Both the position numbers and the translations under genes were made by a program. From the NCBI RefSeq assembly GCF_029227855.1, contig NZ_CP074356.1: a stretch of 64,000 nucleotides of DNA. One strand, given 5' to 3'. Each line of letters starts with the position of its first letter. Within the stretch, counting starts at the first letter, position 1. This DNA comes from Escherichia coli. Lineage in GTDB: Bacteria; Pseudomonadota; Gammaproteobacteria; Enterobacterales; Enterobacteriaceae. Shown in pieces: positions 2,109 to 29,025 of the stretch. The notes beneath the pieces are model-generated. The model was not told the DNA's origin, ran no database searches, and was given only the letters and a program-made list of their open reading frames with translations.

Positions 2109-2686
2109 GAGTTCCCCGCGCCAGCGGGGATAAACCGATTTTGGTGGCGGGGGTGACTGGGGGAATACTGAGTTCCCCGCGCCAGCGGGGATAAACCGTC
2201 CGAGCGCGTAATAGCGCGCGCCCGGAAACAGAGTTCCCCGCGCCAGCGGGGATAAACCGCGGCACCAGGGCTGAAAGGCGGGGCCGCTAAAGAGTTCCCC
2301 GCGCCAGCGGGGATAAACCGGCCAGCGGCGCTGAGTACGACGACCTGATTAAGAGTTCCCCGCGCCAGCGGGGATAAACCGTCAATACAACAGCAATGCT
2401 GGAGCTGGAAAAAGAGTTCCCCGCGCCAGCGGGGATAAACCGGTACCGTTGAGCAATGGTGGGTAAATGGTGCTGAGTTCCCCGCGCCAGCGGGGATAAA
2501 CCGATTTAGATACGGCACACAGGAATGCGCTGGATGAGTTCCCCGCGCCAGCGGGGATAAACCGCATGGGAGTCCAGATTACAAATTCCAGAATGGGAGT
2601 TCCCCGCGCCAGCGGGGATAAACCGCGTTTAGCTCCGCAATGTTGGATATCACTGATGAGTTCCCCGCACCAGCGGGAATAAACCA
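2109..2686 (+). CRISPR. Type I-E CRISPR array (orphan, queE-ygcE intergenic), 9 spacers
   Basis: Nine 29-bp repeats GAGTTCCCCGCGCCAGCGGGGATAAACCG at a 61-bp period (2109, 2170 ... 2597) plus a degenerate terminal repeat at 2658-2686; nine unique 32-bp spacers; leader on the queE side sets orientation. Confidence 0.95.
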
Positions 2687-3140
2687 CCATATAACCCGTT
2701 ATCTCTTTCTCAAGTTTTTATATTAGCAGTACTCGTATTAAGCAACATATCCACGTAACACCTCATGTTCAAAATAGCTCTCCATATATGAGAAGTTCAC
2801 AATTATCGATACAAAAAATCAAATTTAATCAAAGTGTTATTTGTATAATCCTTAAACCGTTAAGAAATTTTAACATATTATTTTTTTAATATTAATTAAT
2901 GCCTGTTAATTTTTTCTTTAGAATAACAGTGTATTTTTTAAGCTTGTTATTCATTGATTAAGTAATAAATCTGGAAATTTGTCTTTGTTTTGAGGCTAAT
3001 GAGTGATTTTACATAATCGCCTCTATACGCTGTTGATGAATAGTTCTTATGAATAAAGATATCCAGTTCATACTTTAAGTGAAAATTGATAAAGTACGGT
3101 TCGCGTTGTCTTTTATTCTAAGGACATCGAGTGTAGTTAA

Positions 3141-3278
3141 TATTCCTTGTAAAAACAGGGATAAACCGAACTAGTTAAAGTTTTTATTATGTTCCCTGCA
3201 TCAGCGGGGATAAACCGGACTTGTTATCATTTTTTAAGTTGTCGAACTTATGTTCCCCGCGCCAGCGGGGATAACCAT
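3141..3278 (+). CRISPR. Degenerate CRISPR remnant (three decayed repeat copies, one 32-bp spacer)
   Basis: Repeat-like copies at about 3141-3168 (TATTCCTTGTAAAAACAGGGATAAACCG), 3189-3217 (ATGTTCCCTGCATCAGCGGGGATAAACCG) and 3250-3278 (ATGTTCCCCGCGCCAGCGGGGATAACCAT); the last two are separated by exactly 32 bp. Confidence 0.6.
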
Positions 3279-18383: not shown

Positions 18384-19118
18384 ATGTCCAAACTCGATCT
18401 AAACGCCCTGAACGAACTGCCGAAGGTAGATCGCATTCTGGCGCTGGCAGAAACTAACGCCGAACTGGAAAAACTGGACGCTGAAGGCCGCGTTGCCTGG
18501 GCGCTGGATAATCTGCCCGGTGAATATGTACTTTCTTCCAGTTTCGGCATTCAGGCGGCGGTGAGCCTGCATCTGGTGAATCAGATTCGCCCGGATATTC
18601 CAGTGATCCTCACCGATACGGGTTACTTGTTCCCGGAAACCTACCGCTTTATTGACGAGTTAACGGACAAACTCAAGCTCAACCTGAAAGTGTACCGCGC
18701 TACCGAAAGCGCCGCCTGGCAGGAAGCACGTTACGGAAAACTGTGGGAGCAGGGTGTTGAAGGCATTGAAAAGTACAATGACATCAACAAAGTCGAACCG
18801 ATGAACCGGGCGCTGAAAGAACTGAATGCGCAAACCTGGTTTGCTGGCCTGCGCCGTGAACAATCCGGCAGCCGCACCAATTTACCGGTGCTGGCAATTC
18901 AGCGTGGCGTATTTAAAGTGCTGCCGATTATCGACTGGGATAACCGAACTATTTATCAGTACCTGCAAAAACATGGCCTGAAATATCACCCATTATGGGA
19001 TGAAGGATATTTATCGGTCGGTGATACCCATACAACCCGTAAATGGGAACCCGGCATGGCGGAAGAAGAAACGCGTTTCTTTGGCTTAAAAAGAGAATGT
19101 GGGTTACACGAAGGGTAA
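18384..19118 (+). CDS. cysH: Phosphoadenosine phosphosulfate (PAPS) reductase
   Basis: Track ORF 18231-19118; start at [20 protein letters not shown]... (244 aa); C-terminal ECGLH motif. Confidence 0.9.
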
Positions 19119-19136
19119 ATATTGCCGGATAAATTA

Positions 19137-19174
19137 AACGCCTCTGTCAGAAATGATGGGGGCGTTTTTATTTT
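19137..19174 (+). terminator. Rho-independent terminator after cysH
   Basis: Inverted repeat AACGCC...GGCGTT (19137-19142 / 19161-19166) followed by TTTATTTT. Confidence 0.5.
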
Positions 19175-19279
19175 GCGAGCAGCATTCCTGATTTTAAACG
19201 TGAACGCCGCTGGAAGAATTATCAGGTATAGAATGGCGTTGGGTGCTTGAGGCTGTCTGGCGTTAAGCATTCGCGAGGT

Positions 19280-19343
19280 TCCAGATGGACAAAAGCCCCA
19301 GGCGATATTTCTATCAACCTGAGGCCAGCGTTCGAACCTAAGC
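19280..19343 (-). ncRNA. Candidate Sok-type antisense RNA (sokX-like) opposite the hokX leader
   Basis: Minus-strand promoter-like elements TTGCCT (complement of 19374-19379), 17-bp spacer, TAACAT (complement of 19351-19356) overlapping the hokX SD/ATG, as in hok/sok loci; a weak hairpin plus U-run near 19280. Extent is approximate. Confidence 0.3.
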
Positions 19344-19382
19344 AATTCGAATGTTAGTCTCTTCTTTGCAGGGAGGCAAGAC

Positions 19383-19535
19383 ATGCTGACAAAATATGCC
19401 CTTGTGGCAATCATCGTACTGTGTTGTACAGTACTGGGATTCACGCTGATGGTAGGCGACTCGTTGTGTGAGTTGAGTATCAGAGAACGTGGTATGGAGT
19501 TTAAGGCAGTTCTCGCTTACGAATCGAAGAAGTAG
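19383..19535 (+). CDS. hokX: Hok-family small membrane toxin (type I toxin-antitoxin)
   Basis: 50-codon [53 protein letters not shown] with GGGAGG RBS 6 nt upstream; hydrophobic helix plus conserved Hok/Gef C-terminal pattern; below the ORF-track size cut-off. Confidence 0.75.
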
Positions 19536-19729
19536 CCACCACGCGGGGGTAAAACCCCGCGTATTGAATTGTGATGGTTTGGTCTCCTGCACCCTTTTTT
19601 AATTTATATTGTTTATGTGAATATTATGCCTATGTTTATTATTCATATATATTACGGATGAAAATTATTTGATTATTCATAATGTAAATATTTTATTGAA
19701 CGATATATATCACAGATAATTTTTAATAT

Positions 19730-22360
19730 ATGCGTAAATATCCTTTAAGTTTACTGAAGGATAAAAATATTGTGACTTTTTTTGATTTCTGGGGAAAAAC
19801 CCGACGCGGCGAGAAAGACGGGGGCGACGACTATCACCTTCTTTGCTGGCATTCGCTGGATGTAGCCGCGATGGGCTATTTAATGGTTAAAAGCAATTGC
19901 TTCGGGCTGACTGACTATTTTCGTCAACTAGGTTTCGCTGATACGGAGCAGGCAGCACAATTTTTCGCCTGGCTATTGTGCTGGCACGATACTGGAAAAT
20001 TTGCCCGCTCTTTTCAGCAACTTTACCTGCACCCACAACTCAAGGTTCCGGAAGGCGCAAGAAAGAATTACGAAAAGATCTCTCATTCAACGCTGGGCTA
20101 CTGGCTGTGGCATCATTATTTAAGTGAATACGAAGAATTGCTTCCTTCATCTTCACTCTCTCCGCGCAAACTTAAACGGGTGATGGAGATGTGGATGCCC
20201 ATGACTACCGGGCATCATGGTCGGCCCCCTGACCGTATTGATGAACTGGATAATTTTCTGCCTGAAGACAAAGCTGCCGCACGAGATTTTCTCCTTGAAA
20301 TCAAGGTACTGTTTCCGCTCATCGAGATCCCCGCATTCTGGGATGATGACGAGGGCATTGAACTTTTAAAACAACTTTCCTGGTATATCTCTGCAACCGT
20401 CGTACTCGCAGACTGGACGGGATCGTCAACGCGGTTTTTTCCACGCGTTGCACAGGCAATGGATATTAAAGATTACTGGCAGAAGGCTTTAGTTCAGGCT
20501 CAAAACGCCTTAACCGTCTTTCCTCCAAAAGCACAAACCGCGCCTTTCACCGGAATTAATACGCTGTTTCCTTTTATTGAGCACCCGACACCGTTACAGC
20601 AAAAGGTGCTGGATCTGGATATCAGCCAGCCTGGGCCACAGTTATTTATTCTGGAGGATGTGACTGGCGCAGGTAAAACAGAAGCGGCGCTTATCCTGGC
20701 CCACAGGTTGATGGCTGCGGGGAAAGCACAGGGTTTGTTTTTTGGCCTGCCAACAATGGCAACGGCCAATGCCATGTACGATCGGCTGGTAAAAACCTGG
20801 CTTGCTTTCTATTCGCCAGAATCCCGCCCCAGCCTGGTGCTGGCACACAGTGCCCGCACATTAATGGACCGCTTTAATGAATCACTCTGGTCCGGTGATT
20901 TAGTCGGGTCAGAAGAACCGGATGAACAAGCGTTCAGTCAGGGATGTGCGGCCTGGTTTGCCGACAGTAACAAGAAGGCGTTGCTGGCTGAAATTGGCGT
21001 CGGCACGCTGGATCAGGCGATGATGGCGGTGATGCCGTTTAAACATAATAATCTGCGGCTTCTGGGACTGAGTAACAAAATCCTGCTGGCTGATGAGATC
21101 CATGCCTGTGACGCTTACATGTCGTGCATTCTTGAAGGATTGATTGAGCGGCAGGCGCGTGGAGGAAACAGCGTTATTTTGCTTTCTGCCACGTTATCTC
21201 AACAGCAGCGCGACAAACTCGTTGCTGCCTTTGCGCGTGGTGCAGAGGGCCAGCAAGAAGCTCCGTTCCTGGAAAAGGATGATTACCCCTGGCTGACGCA
21301 CGTTACGAAATCGGATGTGCATTCACACCGGGTAGCAGCGCGCAAAGACGTTGAGCGTAGCGTGAGCGTGGGTTGGCTTCATAGCGAACAAGAGTGTATT
21401 GCGCGTATCGAATCGGCGGTAAGTCAGGGGAAATGCATCGCCTGGATCCGGAATTCTGTCGATGATGCTATTAAAGTTTATCGTCAGTTACTTGCCCGCG
21501 GCGTCATTCCTGCTTCCAGCCTTTCTCTTTTTCATAGCCGCTTTGCTTTTAGCGATCGCCAGCGAATTGAAACGGAAACGCTGGCACGCTTTGGTAAAGA
21601 AGATAGCTCACAGCGTGCCGGAAAAGTCCTCATTTGTACTCAGGTCTTAGAGTCGAGCGTTGATTGCGATATGGACGAAATGATTTCCGACCTTGCCCCC
21701 ATTGATTTGCTGATCCAGCGAGCGGGGCGATTACAGCGACATATCCGCGATATTAATGGTCAGTTAAAGCGTGACGGAAAAGACGAGCGTTCCCCTCCTG
21801 AATTGCTGATTCTGGCCCCCGTCTGGGACGACGCTCCAGGTGACGAATGGTTCGGCAGTGCCATGCGTAACAGTGCATATGTCTATCCCGATCATGGACG
21901 AATCTGGCTGACGCAGCGTGTACTGCGTGAGCAAGGCGCTATTCAAATGCCACACGCAGCCCGCCTTCTTATTGAATCAGTCTACGGTGAGGACGTGGTA
22001 ATGCCGGAAGGATTTGCCCGCAGCGAGCAGGAACAAGTGGGCAAATATTACTGCGATCGCGCAATGGCTAAAAAGTTTGTGCTGAACTTTAGGCCCGGCT
22101 ATGCCGCCAATATCAACGATTACCTCCCGGAAAAACTGTCGACACGTCTGGCTGAGGAGTCTGTTTCCCTGTGGCTGGCTACCTGTATTGCCGGTGTGGT
22201 GAAGCCTTATGCCAACGGTGCTCACGCATGGGAAATGAGCGTTGTCAGAGTGCGTCGAAGCTGGTGGAAAAACATCGGGATGAGTTTTCTTTACTGGAAG
22301 GGGAAGCGTTCAGGCAGTGGTGCATTGAACAGCGGAAAGATCCGGAGATGGCAAACGTGA
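19730..22360 (+). CDS. cas3: Cas3 HD-nuclease/helicase (type I-E); 3' end apparently frameshifted, with the conserved C-terminus continuing in the +1 frame to 22428
   Basis: 876-aa ORF with HD region (LLCWHSLDVAAMGYL...), DExH helicase motifs (GAGKTEAAL, LLADEIHACD). The last ~36 codons are low-complexity and basic, while ORF 22171-22428 in another frame encodes a tail resembling the K-12 Cas3 C-terminus. An in-frame GTG at 19772 is an alternative start. Confidence 0.85.
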   Translation: MRKYPLSLLKDKNIVTFFDFWGKTRRGEKDGGDDYHLLCWHSLDVAAMGYLMVKSNCFGLTDYFRQLGFADTEQAAQFFAWLLCWHDTGKFARSFQQLYLHPQLKVPEGARKNYEKISHSTLGYWLWHHYLSEYEELLPSSSLSPRKLKRVMEMWMPMTTGHHGRPPDRIDELDNFLPEDKAAARDFLLEIKVLFPLIEIPAFWDDDEGIELLKQLSWYISATVVLADWTGSSTRFFPRVAQAMDIKDYWQKALVQAQNALTVFPPKAQTAPFTGINTLFPFIEHPTPLQQKVLDLDISQPGPQLFILEDVTGAGKTEAALILAHRLMAAGKAQGLFFGLPTMATANAMYDRLVKTWLAFYSPESRPSLVLAHSARTLMDRFNESLWSGDLVGSEEPDEQAFSQGCAAWFADSNKKALLAEIGVGTLDQAMMAVMPFKHNNLRLLGLSNKILLADEIHACDAYMSCILEGLIERQARGGNSVILLSATLSQQQRDKLVAAFARGAEGQQEAPFLEKDDYPWLTHVTKSDVHSHRVAARKDVERSVSVGWLHSEQECIARIESAVSQGKCIAWIRNSVDDAIKVYRQLLARGVIPASSLSLFHSRFAFSDRQRIETETLARFGKEDSSQRAGKVLICTQVLESSVDCDMDEMISDLAPIDLLIQRAGRLQRHIRDINGQLKRDGKDERSPPELLILAPVWDDAPGDEWFGSAMRNSAYVYPDHGRIWLTQRVLREQGAIQMPHAARLLIESVYGEDVVMPEGFARSEQEQVGKYYCDRAMAKKFVLNFRPGYAANINDYLPEKLSTRLAEESVSLWLATCIAGVVKPYANGAHAWEMSVVRVRRSWWKNIGMSFLYWKGKRSGSGALNSGKIRRWQT

Positions 22361-22525
22361 TTTTAGTTACCGATGACGAAAGTTGCGGGTATTCGGCTAT
22401 GGAAGGATTGACTGGCAAGGTTGGTTGAGATGCCTGCGACAGGGCTCTCTGAATAGTTGATACACCGAAAAGGATGGAATGATGGACAACCGACCTGGGA
22501 TGGTCTTTTTTACGAGAGGATGCGT

Positions 22526-24088
22526 ATGAACTCGTTTTCACTTCTGACAACCCCGTGGTTGCCCGTTCGTTATAAAGACGGAACGACAGGCAAACTGGCG
22601 CCTGTCGATCTGGCGGATGAAAATGTTGTCGATATTGCTGCGCCACGGGCAGATCTCCAGGGAGCGGCATGGCAGTTTTTGCTGGGGCTACTACAAACCA
22701 GCTTTGCGCCAAAAGATCATCGTCGTTGGGATGATATCTGGGAAGACGGACTGGAATCTGAAAAGCTACGGGAAGCATTGCTGTCCTTAGAACACGCTTT
22801 CCAGTTTGGGCCAGATTCCCCTTCATTTATGCAGGATTTCGAGGCGCTCACAGGAGATAAAGTTCAGGTCGCTTCGCTACTGCCTGAGATTCCCGGCGCT
22901 CAAACAACGAAGTTTAATAAAGACCACTTTATCAAGCGTGGTGTAACGGAATACCTGTGCCCACATTGTTCTGCGTTAGCTCTGTTCTCCCTACAGTTAA
23001 ATGCGCCGTCAGGTGGTAAAGGCTACCGCACCGGTTTACGCGGCGGTGGGCCGATGACCACTCTGATTGAATTACAGGAATATCAGGGCAATCAACAAAC
23101 GCCCTTGTGGCGCAAACTGTGGCTCAATGTGATGCCGCAGGACGAAGCCGACTTACCGCTACCCAAAAAATTTGACGATCTGGTTTTCCCCTGGCTTGGC
23201 CCGACGCGTACCAGCGAACTGGCCGGTGCGGTGGTAACCGATGATCAGGTTAATAAACTCCAGGCGTACTGGGGAATGCCGCGGCGTATTCGTATTGATT
23301 TTAATACCACGACAGTCGGCAACTGCGATATTTGCGGCGAGCAGAACGACGCGCTCCTGAGCCTGATGACGACCAAAAATTACGGCGCGAATTATGCCAT
23401 GTGGCAGCATCCCTTAACGCCTTACCGTGTACCCCTTAAAGAGGGCGGCGAGTTTTACTCGGTCAAACCACAACCAGGCGGTTTAATCTGGCGCGACTGG
23501 TTAGGCCTTATCGAAACGGGTAAATCAGAAAACAATACGGAACTTCCCGCGCTGGTGGTGAAACTCTTTAATGCCAGCAGTCTCAAGCAGGCAAAAGTGG
23601 GCCTATGGGGATTTGGTTATGATTTTGACAACATGAAAGCGCGCTGTTGGTACGAACACCATTTCCCGCTACTGCTCAATAAAAAAGAAGGCCAGATACC
23701 GAAGCTGCGGCTGGCTGCGCAAACGGCTTCACGGATTCTGAGTCTGTTACGGAGTGCATTGAAAGAAGCATGGTTCTCCGATCCAAAAGGTGCAAGGGGT
23801 GATTTCAGTTTTGTGGATATCGACTTCTGGAACAAAACTCAGCATCGCTTCCTGAGGTTAGTGCGCCAAATTGAAGAAGGTCAGGATGCGGATGAATTAC
23901 TCGGCAAATGGCAAAAGGAAATTTGGTTATTCGCGCGTCAGGATTTTGACGAGCGTGTATTCACTAATCCTTATGAGCCCGTTGATTTGAAACGCGTCAT
24001 GACCGCGCGCAAGAAATATTTTACAACATCGGCGGAGAAGCAAAGTGCTAAAGCCGCCAGGGAGAAAAAGCAGGAGGCTGCTGAATGA
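22526..24088 (+). CDS. casA: Cascade large subunit Cse1 (CasA)
   Basis: Track ORF 22457-24088; start placed at the ATG 6 nt after a GAGAGG RBS (MNSFSLLTTPWLPVRYKDG..., 520 aa), matching the N-terminal pattern of K-12 CasA. Confidence 0.85.
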   Translation: MNSFSLLTTPWLPVRYKDGTTGKLAPVDLADENVVDIAAPRADLQGAAWQFLLGLLQTSFAPKDHRRWDDIWEDGLESEKLREALLSLEHAFQFGPDSPSFMQDFEALTGDKVQVASLLPEIPGAQTTKFNKDHFIKRGVTEYLCPHCSALALFSLQLNAPSGGKGYRTGLRGGGPMTTLIELQEYQGNQQTPLWRKLWLNVMPQDEADLPLPKKFDDLVFPWLGPTRTSELAGAVVTDDQVNKLQAYWGMPRRIRIDFNTTTVGNCDICGEQNDALLSLMTTKNYGANYAMWQHPLTPYRVPLKEGGEFYSVKPQPGGLIWRDWLGLIETGKSENNTELPALVVKLFNASSLKQAKVGLWGFGYDFDNMKARCWYEHHFPLLLNKKEGQIPKLRLAAQTASRILSLLRSALKEAWFSDPKGARGDFSFVDIDFWNKTQHRFLRLVRQIEEGQDADELLGKWQKEIWLFARQDFDERVFTNPYEPVDLKRVMTARKKYFTTSAEKQSAKAAREKKQEAAE

Positions 24089-24621
24089 GTATTGTAAAAG
24101 AGGAGCACAAAGCCACGCTGCGTAAATGGCACGAAGAGTTGCAGGAAAAACGCGGCAATCGTGCCAGTCTGCGGCGTAGCACAACGGTTAATGATGTTTG
24201 TCTGTCAGAAGGGTTTCGTTCTCTGCTGATGCAGACCCACACGTTGTGGAAAATTGAATCACAGGAGTGGCGTTTTACCGCACTGGCGCTGGTTGCCGCC
24301 GTTGCCGCCAATGTAAAAGCCATTGATGAACGGCAGCCTTTTGCCGCGCAGTTGGCGGCGGTAATGTCTGAGGGGCGTTTTACTCGCCTGTCGGCAGTCA
24401 AAACGCCGGATGAATTACTGCGCCAGTTACGTCGCGCGGTCAAATTATTAAATGGTTCCGTCAATCTTATCTCTTTGGCAGACGATATTTTCCGCTGGTG
24501 CCAGGAGAGCGACGATCTGCTCAATCATCACCGCCGCCAGCAGCGGCCAACAGAATTTATCCGTATCCGCTGGGCGCTGGAATATTACCAGGCTGGCGAC
24601 GCCGATAACGAACAAAATTAA
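24085..24621 (+). CDS. casB: Cascade small subunit Cse2 (CasB)
   Basis: 178-aa ORF MSIVKEEHKATLRKWHEELQEKRGNRASLRR...; overlaps the casA stop; position in the cascade operon. Confidence 0.85.
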   Translation: MSIVKEEHKATLRKWHEELQEKRGNRASLRRSTTVNDVCLSEGFRSLLMQTHTLWKIESQEWRFTALALVAAVAANVKAIDERQPFAAQLAAVMSEGRFTRLSAVKTPDELLRQLRRAVKLLNGSVNLISLADDIFRWCQESDDLLNHHRRQQRPTEFIRIRWALEYYQAGDADNEQN

Positions 24622-24635
24622 TAAAGGACTATCTC

Positions 24636-25691
24636 ATGACGACATTTATTCAGCTTCATTTGTTAACCGCTTACCCTGCTGCCAACCTTAACCGTGATGA
24701 CACCGGTGCGCCAAAAACTGTGGTACTGGGTGGAGCAACGCGTCTGCGCGTTTCCTCACAAAGTCTGAAACGTGCGTGGCGCACTTCTGCACTTTTTGAA
24801 CAGGCACTGGCGGGCCATATTGGTATTCGCAGTGGGCGTATTGCGCGTGAGGCGGCAACTATCCTGATTGAGAAAGGCATCGAAGAGAAAAAAGCCATCG
24901 AATGGGCGGCAAAAATTGCGGATTATCTTGGGAAAGCTAAAAACGACAAAAAACCAAAAGATCCGCTCACTAACGCCGAAACTGAACAGCTAGTCCATAT
25001 CAGCCCGGCAGAATTTGACGCCGTAAAAGCGCTGGCCCATCAACTGGCCGAAGAAAAGCGCGCGCCAAAAGAGGAAGATCTCGCTTTGTTACGTAAAGAT
25101 CGCATGGCGGTAGATATCGCTATGTTTGGTCGTATGCTGGCGAATAAACCCGAATTTAATGTTGAAGCCGCCTGCCAGGTCGCGCATGCATTTGGTGTCA
25201 GTGAAACGATTGTCGAAGATGATTTTTTCACCGCCGTTGATGATTTGCGCCAGGCTTCTGAAGATGCCGGTGCCGGGCATCTTGGTGAAACCGGATTCGG
25301 TTCTGCGCTGTTCTACACCTATATCTGCATCGATAAAGATCTGCTGGTCGAAAACCTCGGCGGTGACGAAGCGTTAGCTAATCAGACCTTGCGCGCCTTT
25401 ACGGAAGCCGCACTTAAAGTCTCCCCAACCGGCAAACAGAACAGCTTTGCCAGCCGTGCCTACGCCTCCTGGGCGCTGGCAGAAAAAGGCACTGAACAAC
25501 CACGCTCTCTGGCGGCGGCTTTCTATGAACCCATTAATGGCACCCGGCAGTTAGATGTGGCGGTGCAGCGTATTACAACGCTTCGCGAAAATATGAATAC
25601 GGTCTATGAACAGAAGACCGAATGCGCAAGCTTTGACGTGATGAACAAACAGGGAAGCATGAAGGACGTGCTGGACTTTATCTGCGCGTAA
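24636..25691 (+). CDS. casC: Cascade backbone subunit Cas7e (CasC)
   Basis: 351-aa ORF MTTFIQLHLLTAYPAANLNRDDTGAPKTVVLGGATRLRVSSQSLKRAWR... Confidence 0.9.
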   Translation: MTTFIQLHLLTAYPAANLNRDDTGAPKTVVLGGATRLRVSSQSLKRAWRTSALFEQALAGHIGIRSGRIAREAATILIEKGIEEKKAIEWAAKIADYLGKAKNDKKPKDPLTNAETEQLVHISPAEFDAVKALAHQLAEEKRAPKEEDLALLRKDRMAVDIAMFGRMLANKPEFNVEAACQVAHAFGVSETIVEDDFFTAVDDLRQASEDAGAGHLGETGFGSALFYTYICIDKDLLVENLGGDEALANQTLRAFTEAALKVSPTGKQNSFASRAYASWALAEKGTEQPRSLAAAFYEPINGTRQLDVAVQRITTLRENMNTVYEQKTECASFDVMNKQGSMKDVLDFICA

Positions 25692-25701
25692 GGGGCGGCT
25701 A

Positions 25702-26448
25702 ATGAGCCAATATTTGATTTTTCAGCTTCATGGGCCAATGGCATCCTGGGGCGTCGATGCCCCCGGCGAAGTGCGTCATACCCATGAACTGCCTTCGCGC
25801 TCAGCATTGCTGGGGCTGCTGGCTGCCGGGGTAGGGATTCGGCGTGATGATACCGAACGATTAAACGTGTTTAACCGCCACTATTCACTGGTGGTTTGCG
25901 CCAGCCGTAACCCGCGCTGGGCACGGGATTATCACACAATCCAGATGCCAAAAGAGGTGCGTAAAGCGCGTTATTTCAGCCGTCGCGAAGAGTTGAGCGA
26001 CCCTGATCTTCTGAGCGCGATTATCTCCCGGCGCGACTACTACACCGACGCCTGGTGGATGGTGGCGGTGGCAACAACAGCCGATGCGCCTTACAGCCTC
26101 GAACAGTTGCAGGGCGGTTTACGCCATCCAGTTTTTCCTCTTTATCTGGGGCGAAAAAGTCATCCGCTGGCGTTACCACTTGCGCCGTTACTGCTCGAAG
26201 GCAACGCGTCTGATGTCTTACGTAACGCATACCAACAGTATCAGGATAGTTTCCGCGAACTGAAAGTCTCACTCCCGAAACTTCAGGATGAATGCTGGTG
26301 GGAAGGGGAACACGACGGCCTGGTCGCGAGCAAAATATTACGTCGCCGGGATGTTCCTTTAAATCGTCAGCAGTGGCTGTTTGGGGAACGCACCATCAAT
26401 CAGGGGCCGTGGCTCAGCAAGGAGGAACCATGTACCTCTCAAGAATAA
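25702..26448 (+). CDS. casD: Cascade subunit Cas5e (CasD)
   Basis: 248-aa ORF MSQYLIFQLHGPMASWGVDAPGEVRHT...; same N-terminal pattern as K-12 CasD (MRSYLILRLAGPMQAWG). Confidence 0.9.
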   Translation: MSQYLIFQLHGPMASWGVDAPGEVRHTHELPSRSALLGLLAAGVGIRRDDTERLNVFNRHYSLVVCASRNPRWARDYHTIQMPKEVRKARYFSRREELSDPDLLSAIISRRDYYTDAWWMVAVATTADAPYSLEQLQGGLRHPVFPLYLGRKSHPLALPLAPLLLEGNASDVLRNAYQQYQDSFRELKVSLPKLQDECWWEGEHDGLVASKILRRRDVPLNRQQWLFGERTINQGPWLSKEEPCTSQE

Positions 26449-27076
26449 CCTTACATACCGGCCAGCTTTCGCCTGCGCAGTTGCTGCATCTGGTGGATCG
26501 CGGTGAATATGTAATGCATCAGTGGCTGTGGGATCTTTTTCCTGGCGGCAAAGAAAGGCAATTTCTTTATCGTCGGGAAGAACTCCTGGGGGCGTTTCGC
26601 TTTTTTGTCCTGTCGCAGGAACGCCCGGCGGAAAATGATATTTTCACCATCGAATGCCGACCATTTGCGCCAGAGTTGCGTACCGGACAATCCCTTTGTT
26701 TCAACCTGCGGGCGAATCCAACAATTTGTAAAGCGGGCAAACGCCACGACTTGCTGATGGAGGCGAAACGGCAGGTGAGGGGGCAGGTGGAAGGAAGTGA
26801 TGTCTGGTTGCATCAACAACAGGCGGCGCTGGACTGGCTGGCAGCGCAGGGGGAAAGAAGCGGTTTTACACTACTGGATACCTCGGTCGATGCCTACCGA
26901 CAACAGCAACTGCGGCGGGAAAACTCCCGGCAACTGATCCAGTTCAGTAGCGTGGATTATACGGGGATGCTTACGGTCACCGATCCTGGGTTATTTCTGC
27001 AACGTCTGAGCCAGGGGTATGGCAAAAGCCGCGCGTTCGGCTGTGGTCTGATGCTGATCAAACCCGGAGCAGAGGC

Positions 27077-27080
<4 letters not shown>
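26430..27080 (+). CDS. casE: crRNA endoribonuclease Cas6e (CasE)
   Basis: Track ORF 26292-27080; start at ATG after AGGAGG RBS (MYLSRITLHTGQLSPAQLLHLVDRGEYVMHQWLWDLFPG..., 216 aa); C-terminal GCGLM-type motif. Confidence 0.85.
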
Positions 27081-28290
<1,210 letters not shown>

Positions 28291-28386
28291 GTTATCTGTT
28301 CTTTAAAAATAAGGAAATGTTTTAATTTAGTTGGTAGATTGTTGATGCGGAATAAATTTGTTTAAAAACAGTTATGTATGCTTAGT
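28291..28386 (+). promoter_or_regulatory. CRISPR leader of array 2 (AT-rich, GTTGGTAGATTGT box)
   Basis: 96-bp AT-rich spacer between the cas2 stop and the first repeat; box TTTAGTTGGTAGATTGTTGATG shared with the array 1 leader. Confidence 0.5.
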
Positions 28387-29025
28387 GTGTTCCCCGCGCC
28401 AGCGGGGATAAATCGAGATCACCGTGTTAAATAACCGATTGAACGCCGTGTTCCCCGCGCCAGCGGGGATAAATCGGCCAGGCCAATACAGTTGGCGAAG
28501 AAGCGAAGGTGTTCCCCGCGCCAGCGGGGATAAATCGACACCGGGCTGGATAAAAAAACTATCGGGAAAGTGTTCCCCGCGCCAGCGGGGATAAATCGCC
28601 GTTTGATAGCTGTTCACGCTGGCTGATGCCGTGTTCCCCGCGCCAGCGGGGATAAACCGCGCAGTTCGCTACCGAGCGTGGTTTGCTGGTCGTGTTCCCC
28701 GCGCCAGCGGGGATAAACCGGCGCACAGCGACGCGAAATCAACGAAAATTTAGTGTTCCCCGCGCCAGCGGGGATAAACCGATTGCCAGATACTGTGTAT
28801 ATCCACCGACTAAGTGTTCCCCGCGCCAGCGGGGATAAACCGCAGGGAAACCGTTCGTACTTATCGACCTCAACGTGTTCCCCGCGCCAGCGGGGATAAA
28901 CCGAAGGGGACGGCTACGGGACGCCGCCTATTGATGTGTTCCCCGCGTCAGCGGGGATAAACCGGACGCACTGGATGCGATGATGGACATCACTTGGAGT
29001 TCCCCGCCCCTGCGGTAGAACTCCC
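28387..29025 (+). CRISPR. Type I-E CRISPR array (cas-associated), 10 spacers
   Basis: Ten 29-bp repeats at a 61-bp period (28387 ... 28936) plus a degenerate terminal repeat at 28997-29025; ten unique 32-bp spacers. Repeats 1-4 end AAATCG, repeats 5-10 end AAACCG. Confidence 0.95.

Follow-up and report, generated by a model that had tools for sequence, protein, structure and literature searches.

The short cas3-cse1 junction of the cas-E1 CRISPR-Cas locus of Escherichia coli and its probable place in a cas3-to-cas2 operon

Type I-E loci described in Escherichia and Salmonella

The regulation of CRISPR-Cas in E. coli is known almost wholly from K-12, in terms of Pcas, silencing by H-NS and activation by LeuO, LrhA, CRP and SlyA. 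The stoichiometry of type I-E systems is such that Cascade subunits are required in excess over Cas3. In K-12, the region between cas3 and casA contains Pcas and anti-Pcas, is silenced by H-NS and is activated by LeuO, as the work of Pul et al. (2010) and Westra et al. (2010) is cited in later papers (PMC3903273, PMC7074321, PMC7019758). In S. Typhi, H-NS silences cas3 and the cse1 operon (Medina-Aparicio et al., 2011; Medina-Aparicio et al., 2017; both as cited in PMC8039139), and the same source assigns five transcription units, including antisense RNAs, to its cas-STY locus. According to Kushwaha et al. (2020; PMC7712790), the genes of the other Salmonella type, cas-STM, are contiguous, and cas-STY has an inverted cas3 and a gap of 357 nt. 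With regard to transcription of cas-STM, dRNA-seq of S. Typhimurium SL1344 placed a primary transcription start site (TSS) 24 nt before the GTG of STM2944 (ygcB = cas3) and listed no further TSS between iap and cas3; SL1344_2923-2916 were called one operon of eight genes from cas3 to cas2, by manual inspection at low coverage, the cas3 TSS resting on about 10 reads (Ramachandran et al., 2012; PMC3293720). Within E. coli, cas-E1 is the more prevalent variant (Almendros et al., 2014; PMC3903273). Here we describe the junction between cas3 and cse1 of this variant in a stretch of 64,000 nucleotides from E. coli (contig NZ_CP074356.1), which is called the window below and whose positions are used throughout.

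The cas-E1 locus and the 3' end of its cas3 gene

On the plus strand of the window, cysI-cysH are followed by hok/sok, cas3-cse1-cse2-cas7-cas5-cas6e-cas1-cas2 and a CRISPR array, with iap, cysD and cysN downstream as in EDL933 (Table 1). The site between cysH and iap, the gene order and the leader with CRISPR2.1 are those of E1, and a near-identical locus annotated in RefSeq agrees with the map of open reading frames. Primer cas3E1-R, which is specific for E1 (TCGTCGCCCCCGTCTTTCTC; sequence from Almendros et al., 2014; PMC3903273), has its target at 19811-19830, where its reverse complement GAGAAAGACGGGGGCGACGA is read. Identity to the K-12 (E2) proteins by tblastn is 29% for Cas3 and 21% for Cse1, and Cas3, Cse1 and Cse2 score above the cut-off with generic NCBIfam models, with the K-12 equivalogs PRK09694 and PRK09693 below it. 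From the primer target, the low identity to K-12 and these model scores, therefore, the locus belongs to the cas-E1 variant of type I-E in E. coli.

The locus is shared by many strains. At least 80% of a 4.9-kb query (19300-24200) was covered in 2416 of the 5426 complete E. coli genomes, and in K-12-type genomes the match was limited to the first 86 nt of the query. Comparison with E. coli JNEC-KY178 gave one substitution and a 1-bp deletion as the only differences over the 4.9 kb. Downstream of cse1, the genes from cse2 to cas2 overlap or are tightly packed and make up the remainder of the presumed operon. By composition, the CRISPR2.1 leader is the sole AT-rich tract of the locus other than that upstream of cas3.

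Some neighbouring features were also recorded. A hok/sok type I toxin-antitoxin module lies between cysH and cas3 at 19241-19565, with a sok match to Rfam of 111.7 bits at 19241-19398 and the Hok reading frame at 19383-19535. A second CRISPR array, in a CRISPR2.2-3 type position, is found about 16 kb upstream at 2109-3217 and consists of at least 10 repeats ending in GGGGATAAACCG and one degenerate copy. In the collection searched, a 7-kb contig assigned to a 'Collinsella sp.' MAG (JAIJJM010000114.1) encodes proteins 95-98% identical to those of E. coli E1 cas3-cse1; it is almost certainly an E. coli contig mis-binned as Collinsella.

The initial annotation of the window gave two ends for cas3, one at 22360 and the other, in an alternative frame, at 22428. 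The former is due to a 1-bp deletion in a run of A at 22268-22272, which shifts the frame after residue 846, so that a stop codon comes early, at 22358-22360, and 30 out-of-frame residues stand in place of the final 53 of Cas3. All other genomes examined have six A, and their frame continues to TGA at 22426-22428 to encode a Cas3 of 899 aa. The A5 allele was seen in 0 of 2410 complete E. coli genomes; in this search a 1-bp gap was expected at 95-99% identity, where 2400 of the 2410 genomes including the best matches fell, and none matched at 99% or more. Since it is absent from all 2410 genomes, A5 is either an inactivating mutation private to this genome or an error in sequencing the homopolymer.

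Table 1. Positions of cas-E1 features in the window
Feature	Position	Strand	Description and basis
AT-rich regulatory tract upstream of cas3	19590..19771	+	16-24% GC; composition profile
cas3 (type I-E, E1)	19730..22428	+	RefSeq homologue annotation; NCBIfam cas3_core 217.6 bits and cas3_HD 88.8 bits, both above cut-off
EDL933-equivalent cas3 TSS	19749	+	Published position, mapped on NZ_CP008957.1; local sequence identical to the window
A5 homopolymer (A6 in other genomes)	22268..22272	+	Alignment with two E. coli genomes
cas3-cse1 junction	22429..22525	+	97 bp, 49% GC; without terminator and without AT-rich tract
Candidate internal sigma-70 promoter	22457..22483	+	Our own approximate matrix, score 9.0
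uORF, 16 codons, MMDNRPGMVFFTRGCV	22479..22529	+	Read from sequence
Hairpin GACC-TGGGAT-GGTC, 4 bp, followed by T6	22492..22511	+	Sequence
cse1/casA	22526..24088	+	520 aa; RefSeq casA; NCBIfam TIGR02547, 612.8 bits against a cut-off of 70
cse2-cas7-cas5-cas6e-cas1-cas2	24085..28290	+	List of open reading frames and annotation of homologous loci; Cse2 matches NCBIfam model
AT-rich leader and CRISPR2.1	28291..28964	+	Leader about 31% GC; array 28387-28964, 10 repeats

Transcription from upstream of cas3 and its probable passage across the junction

The start of cse1, which is also the RefSeq casA start in the near-identical locus, lies 5 nt past a Shine-Dalgarno sequence (SD) GAGAGGA at 22514-22520. 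The gap before it had been put at about 100-165 bp, and this range stands with both of its limits accounted for: the 97 bp of Table 1 are the real junction, and the 165 bp counted from the premature stop at 22360 arise from the private 1-bp deletion in cas3. It had also been described as free of any AT-rich tract, in agreement with its GC content and with a minimum of 45% GC in any 80-nt window. A 161-bp query spanning the junction retained its length in about 2423 of the 5426 complete E. coli genomes, with identity as low as 94%, and these include O157:H7 EDL933 and O104:H4. Thus the short junction is no accident of this strain. Its 3' 45 nt hardly vary within Escherichia and can still be recognised in Intestinirhabdus. 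The possibility that the junction is a dispersed repeat or a mobile remnant was rejected, as it occurs once per genome.

It is evident from composition that AT-rich control DNA stands instead upstream of cas3. The tract at 19590-19771 occurs as two haplotypes among E1 E. coli, has many sigma-70-like sites and is presumably, by analogy, a candidate H-NS-type silenced region. For EDL933, which is an E1 strain, Table S5 of a Cappable-seq study lists a cas3 TSS at 3694696 on the minus strand (EDL933_RS19295), seen in four stationary-phase conditions, namely LB, M9, acid and salt (Zehentner et al., 2023; PMC10469882). The corresponding G in the window is 19 nt downstream of the annotated ATG of cas3 and 23 nt upstream of a GTG at 19772; it is the listed EDL933 result carried over by sequence, the measurement having been made in that other strain. 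The initial annotation had expected the promoter in a tract at 19590-19729. The listed TSS does lie at the 3' edge of the AT-rich tract, but just downstream of the expected interval and inside the annotated cas3 frame. The GTG at 19772 is preceded by an SD, GAAGGA at 19756-19761, and the Salmonella cas3 starts at the equivalent GTG. Because the Cas3 alignments of most close relatives begin at residue 15 and the mapped TSS falls inside the annotated frame, the true start of cas3 is probably this GTG and the annotated ATG at 19730 is probably wrong.

These observations suggest how the locus may be transcribed. Transcription would start at the 3' edge of the AT-rich tract, at about 19749 and 23 nt before the probable GTG start, pass through cas3, cross the 97-bp junction, which has no terminator and is too C-poor for Rho, and go on via cse1 to cas2, with cse1 translated from its own strong SD. 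The AT-rich tract would be under H-NS-type silencing, by analogy, and with a single promoter region Cas3 and Cascade would therefore be governed together. We consider it probable that 22429-22525 is a read-through spacer of such a cas3-to-cas2 operon, whose promoter would lie at the edge of the AT-rich tract; we infer read-through in E. coli E1, as well as H-NS control, the latter by analogy. The view of the initial annotation, that the Cascade genes are mainly co-transcribed with cas3 from the AT-rich region, is thereby supported in part. A literature search for operon mapping or a junction-spanning transcript in E1 E. coli found none, and the paper on H-NS in K. pneumoniae is without promoter mapping.

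The junction was searched for elements that might interrupt or modify such a transcript. No intrinsic terminator was called in it by a terminator scan, and the RNA of 22415-22535 folds no better than shuffled sequences (z = -0.34); a terminator or structured RNA in the junction was rejected on these grounds. The junction consists of 16-19% C and 31-32% G and has no 78-nt window with more C than G. Rho-dependent polarity past the premature cas3 stop is also unlikely (16% C and 32% G), since in so C-poor and G-rich a sequence Rho loading is unlikely even in the frameshifted strain. A CRISPR-repeat-like element, that is a crRNA-like regulatory one, was rejected for the junction, where the best match was at chance level (99 of 500 shuffles), and for the region upstream of cas3, where the hok 3' hairpin at about 19545-19565 was marginal (7 of 500 shuffles). 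Among known RNA families, sok alone was found in 19000-23000. The H-NS motif TCGATAAATT, with two or fewer mismatches allowed, had no match inside 22361-22525 and one weak match in the AT-rich tract, which is uninformative.

A sigma-70-like site in the junction bears on a different wiring. It has a -35 of TTGATA (22457-22462), a 15-nt spacer with TG at 22475-22476 and a -10 of AATGAT (22478-22483), and its predicted TSS is near 22490. If this site supplied most of the cse1-cas2 mRNA, cas3 and Cascade would be controlled separately as in K-12 and S. Typhi, where promoters of cse1 itself are documented (PMC8039139, PMC7019758), but from a compact promoter of normal GC content that is not silenced by H-NS. 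The site is in the top 0.01% of window positions, and only 0.04-0.085 such sites are expected by chance per 165 nt, so that its presence counts against the operon reading; the minus strand of the junction has no promoter candidate scoring above 3.2. Of the five E1 E. coli sequences compared, all keep the -35 and four keep the -10. Moreover, a cas3-first operon alone does not account for the excess of Cascade over Cas3, which an internal promoter could provide. The Escherichia junction is also about 86 bp longer than the 11-bp junction of Salmonella and Citrobacter, and this gain, with its last 45 nt conserved across genera, is a further point against a plain operon and, in its length, for an internal promoter.

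On the other side, the 15-nt spacer is suboptimal, the -10 matches the consensus at four of six positions, and a stricter consensus scan reports no site in the junction. In O104:H4 the -10 is weakened to AAGGAT; E. albertii and Escherichia sp. MOD1 have lost it through a deletion of 8 bp but keep the remaining junction, and E. albertii retains the same architecture without it. The EDL933 listings consulted, which break off before casA, contain no TSS at 3691900-3692099, the stretch of NZ_CP008957.1 around the equivalent of the junction (3691919-3692015, minus strand), a negative that for this reason has no weight. Moreover, our matrix is approximate and its scores here are no guide to actual promoters; it gives the one mapped at cas3 only 3.8 (top 0.4%), and because of this its negatives elsewhere carry little weight. 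The matrix evidence is thus not strong, whether for the positive site in the junction or for the negatives elsewhere. On balance, we regard an internal promoter as the main source of cse1-cas2 mRNA as unlikely. A related idea, which we hold to be about as doubtful and put forward as speculation, is that the gain of about 86 bp in Escherichia made a promoter of normal GC content at 22457-22483, free of H-NS silencing, that would give basal Cascade and Cas1-Cas2 independently of Cas3. If it were true, a common wild-type system would be wired unlike both the K-12 and the Salmonella paradigms.

The same conserved 3' part of the junction may be read as a post-transcriptional element that sets the Cas3:Cascade ratio, with the hairpin and T6 acting as a leaky attenuator, the uORF gating cse1, or both. 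The near-invariance of the last 45 nt would fit this, as would the hairpin stem, in which one pair is kept through a wobble change in strain elppa6 and a two-sided change from A-T to T-A in Intestinirhabdus. The TGA stop of the uORF overlaps the cse1 ATG as ATGA and AAGGA lies 7 nt upstream of the second ATG, which are typical features of coupling, and the in-frame uORF ATG survives the 8-bp deletion in E. albertii; from sequence, the uORF may permit translational coupling of cse1. However, the stem of 4 bp is too weak for an efficient intrinsic terminator, as the negative scan and fold given above also argue, the uORF variants among E. coli are mostly non-synonymous so that the peptide is not conserved, and cse1 has its own strong SD 5 nt from its ATG. 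Conservation beside a start codon is expected for any ribosome-binding region, and an attenuator would act in the wrong direction, by reducing Cascade relative to Cas3. A tuning role of this kind therefore seems very improbable to us. The junction, in short, is an ordinary intercistronic junction of the E1 locus, and read-through from the promoter upstream of cas3 is its most likely reading.

Junctions of relatives and comparison with known systems

Relatives of Cse1 were gathered from species-representative genomes and public assemblies, and their junctions with cas3 vary widely. In Methanosarcinales, Methanoperedenaceae and a Lambdaproteobacteria relative, the two genes overlap or are separated by about 20 bp or less. 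The junction is 11 bp in S. enterica (STM type), Citrobacter youngae and Phytobacter, 28 bp in Enterobacter kobei, 89 bp in E. albertii, 97 bp in E. coli E1, 151 bp in Klebsiella indica and 176 bp in Intestinirhabdus. Longer ones are found in K-12 (E2; 414 bp), Cronobacter (429 bp), K. aerogenes, C. rodentium, K. spallanzanii and Atlantibacter (484-500 bp), Chimaeribacter (862 bp) and Pectobacterium (2127 bp, with an inserted HigBA pair); in the S. Typhi type, 357 bp separate cse1 from an inverted and divergent cas3. In every locus whose junction is 97 bp or less, a tract of 12-25% GC stands upstream of cas3 and the junction has none; where the junction is 414-862 bp, it contains a tract of 14-31% GC. 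The position of the AT-rich tract in relation to junction length fits two wirings, with the regulatory region either before cas3 or separately before cse1.

Two further observations came from this collection. The cas3-cse1 junction is a rearrangement hot spot in type I-E loci of Enterobacterales, and in Pectobacterium carotovorum the HigB/HigA toxin-antitoxin pair is inserted in it (positions 1863-2702 of the extracted locus, L051). The Cse1 proteins of Methanosarcinales and Methanoperedenaceae are 36-40% identical to E. coli E1 Cse1 and have cas3 adjacent; these loci are cross-domain relatives of this I-E lineage.

Of the relatives with mapped transcription, S. Typhimurium SL1344 is the closest to E1. 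Like E1, cas-STM stands beside cysH; gene order and strand are shared, and Cse1 identity is about 75%. It has an AT-rich tract upstream of cas3, a cas3 TSS 23-24 nt before the GTG, and cas3 and cse1 on the same strand. The differences are that its junction is 11 bp, as against 97 bp in E1 with its possible weak promoter and small uORF, and that sopD precedes the locus where E. coli has hok/sok.

S. Typhi cas-STY is likewise an enterobacterial type I-E locus, and the H-NS silencing reported for it, in the summary cited above, is a precedent for AT-rich regulatory DNA beside cas3. Its cas3, however, is on the opposite strand and divergent from cse1 across a 357-bp gap, a size that was reproduced here, and its Cse1 is about 40% identical. 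Because of the divergent cas3 and a Cse1 only about 40% identical, S. Typhi was rejected as a direct model of E1.

The K-12 locus (cas-E2) shares with E1 the cysH-iap site, the I-E gene order and a spacer between cas3 and the first Cascade gene. The contrast with K-12 that the initial annotation had drawn is borne out: in MG1655 the spacer is 414 bp with 29% GC, a core of 19-24% and lowest 60- and 80-nt windows of 12-14%, and is thus not similar in size to the E1 junction of 97 bp and 49% GC. The several-hundred-bp spacer and the strongly AT-rich core that go with a K-12-type Pcas are absent from the window. Promoter-like sites with high scores are also numerous on both strands of the K-12 spacer, which contains a degenerate CRISPR repeat as well; the E1 junction does not have these features.

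That repeat, TTCCCTACTTAAGTAGGGATAAACCG, lies in the cas3-casA region at NC_000913.3 2884484-2884509 (10485-10510 on the plus strand of the extracted locus, L003), 44-69 nt past the cas3 stop and oriented as the anti-Pcas transcript. It agrees with the CRISPR repeat at 19 of 26 positions, a score that none of 500 shuffles equalled; its palindromic stem is perfect and its 3' handle, ATAAACCG, is intact. A crRNA-like regulatory role is possible.

The junction described here is no new kind of biology. Its arrangement is already known, since the variant has been described and thousands of genomes carry its annotation, and it matches the mapped Salmonella operon. Its interest lies in the comparison with K-12, whose cas-E2 is the minority form, with E1 in about 2420 of 5426 complete genomes (about 45%). 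E1 has no equivalent of the K-12 Pcas region, regulatory models from K-12 do not hold for it, and caution is called for when such models or de-repression tricks are carried over to pathogenic or wild isolates such as O157:H7 and O104:H4. In K-12, cas3 and casA-cas2 are separate units; in E1 they are probably a single unit, and with the AT-rich control DNA placed upstream of cas3, joint regulation of Cas3 and Cascade is probable.
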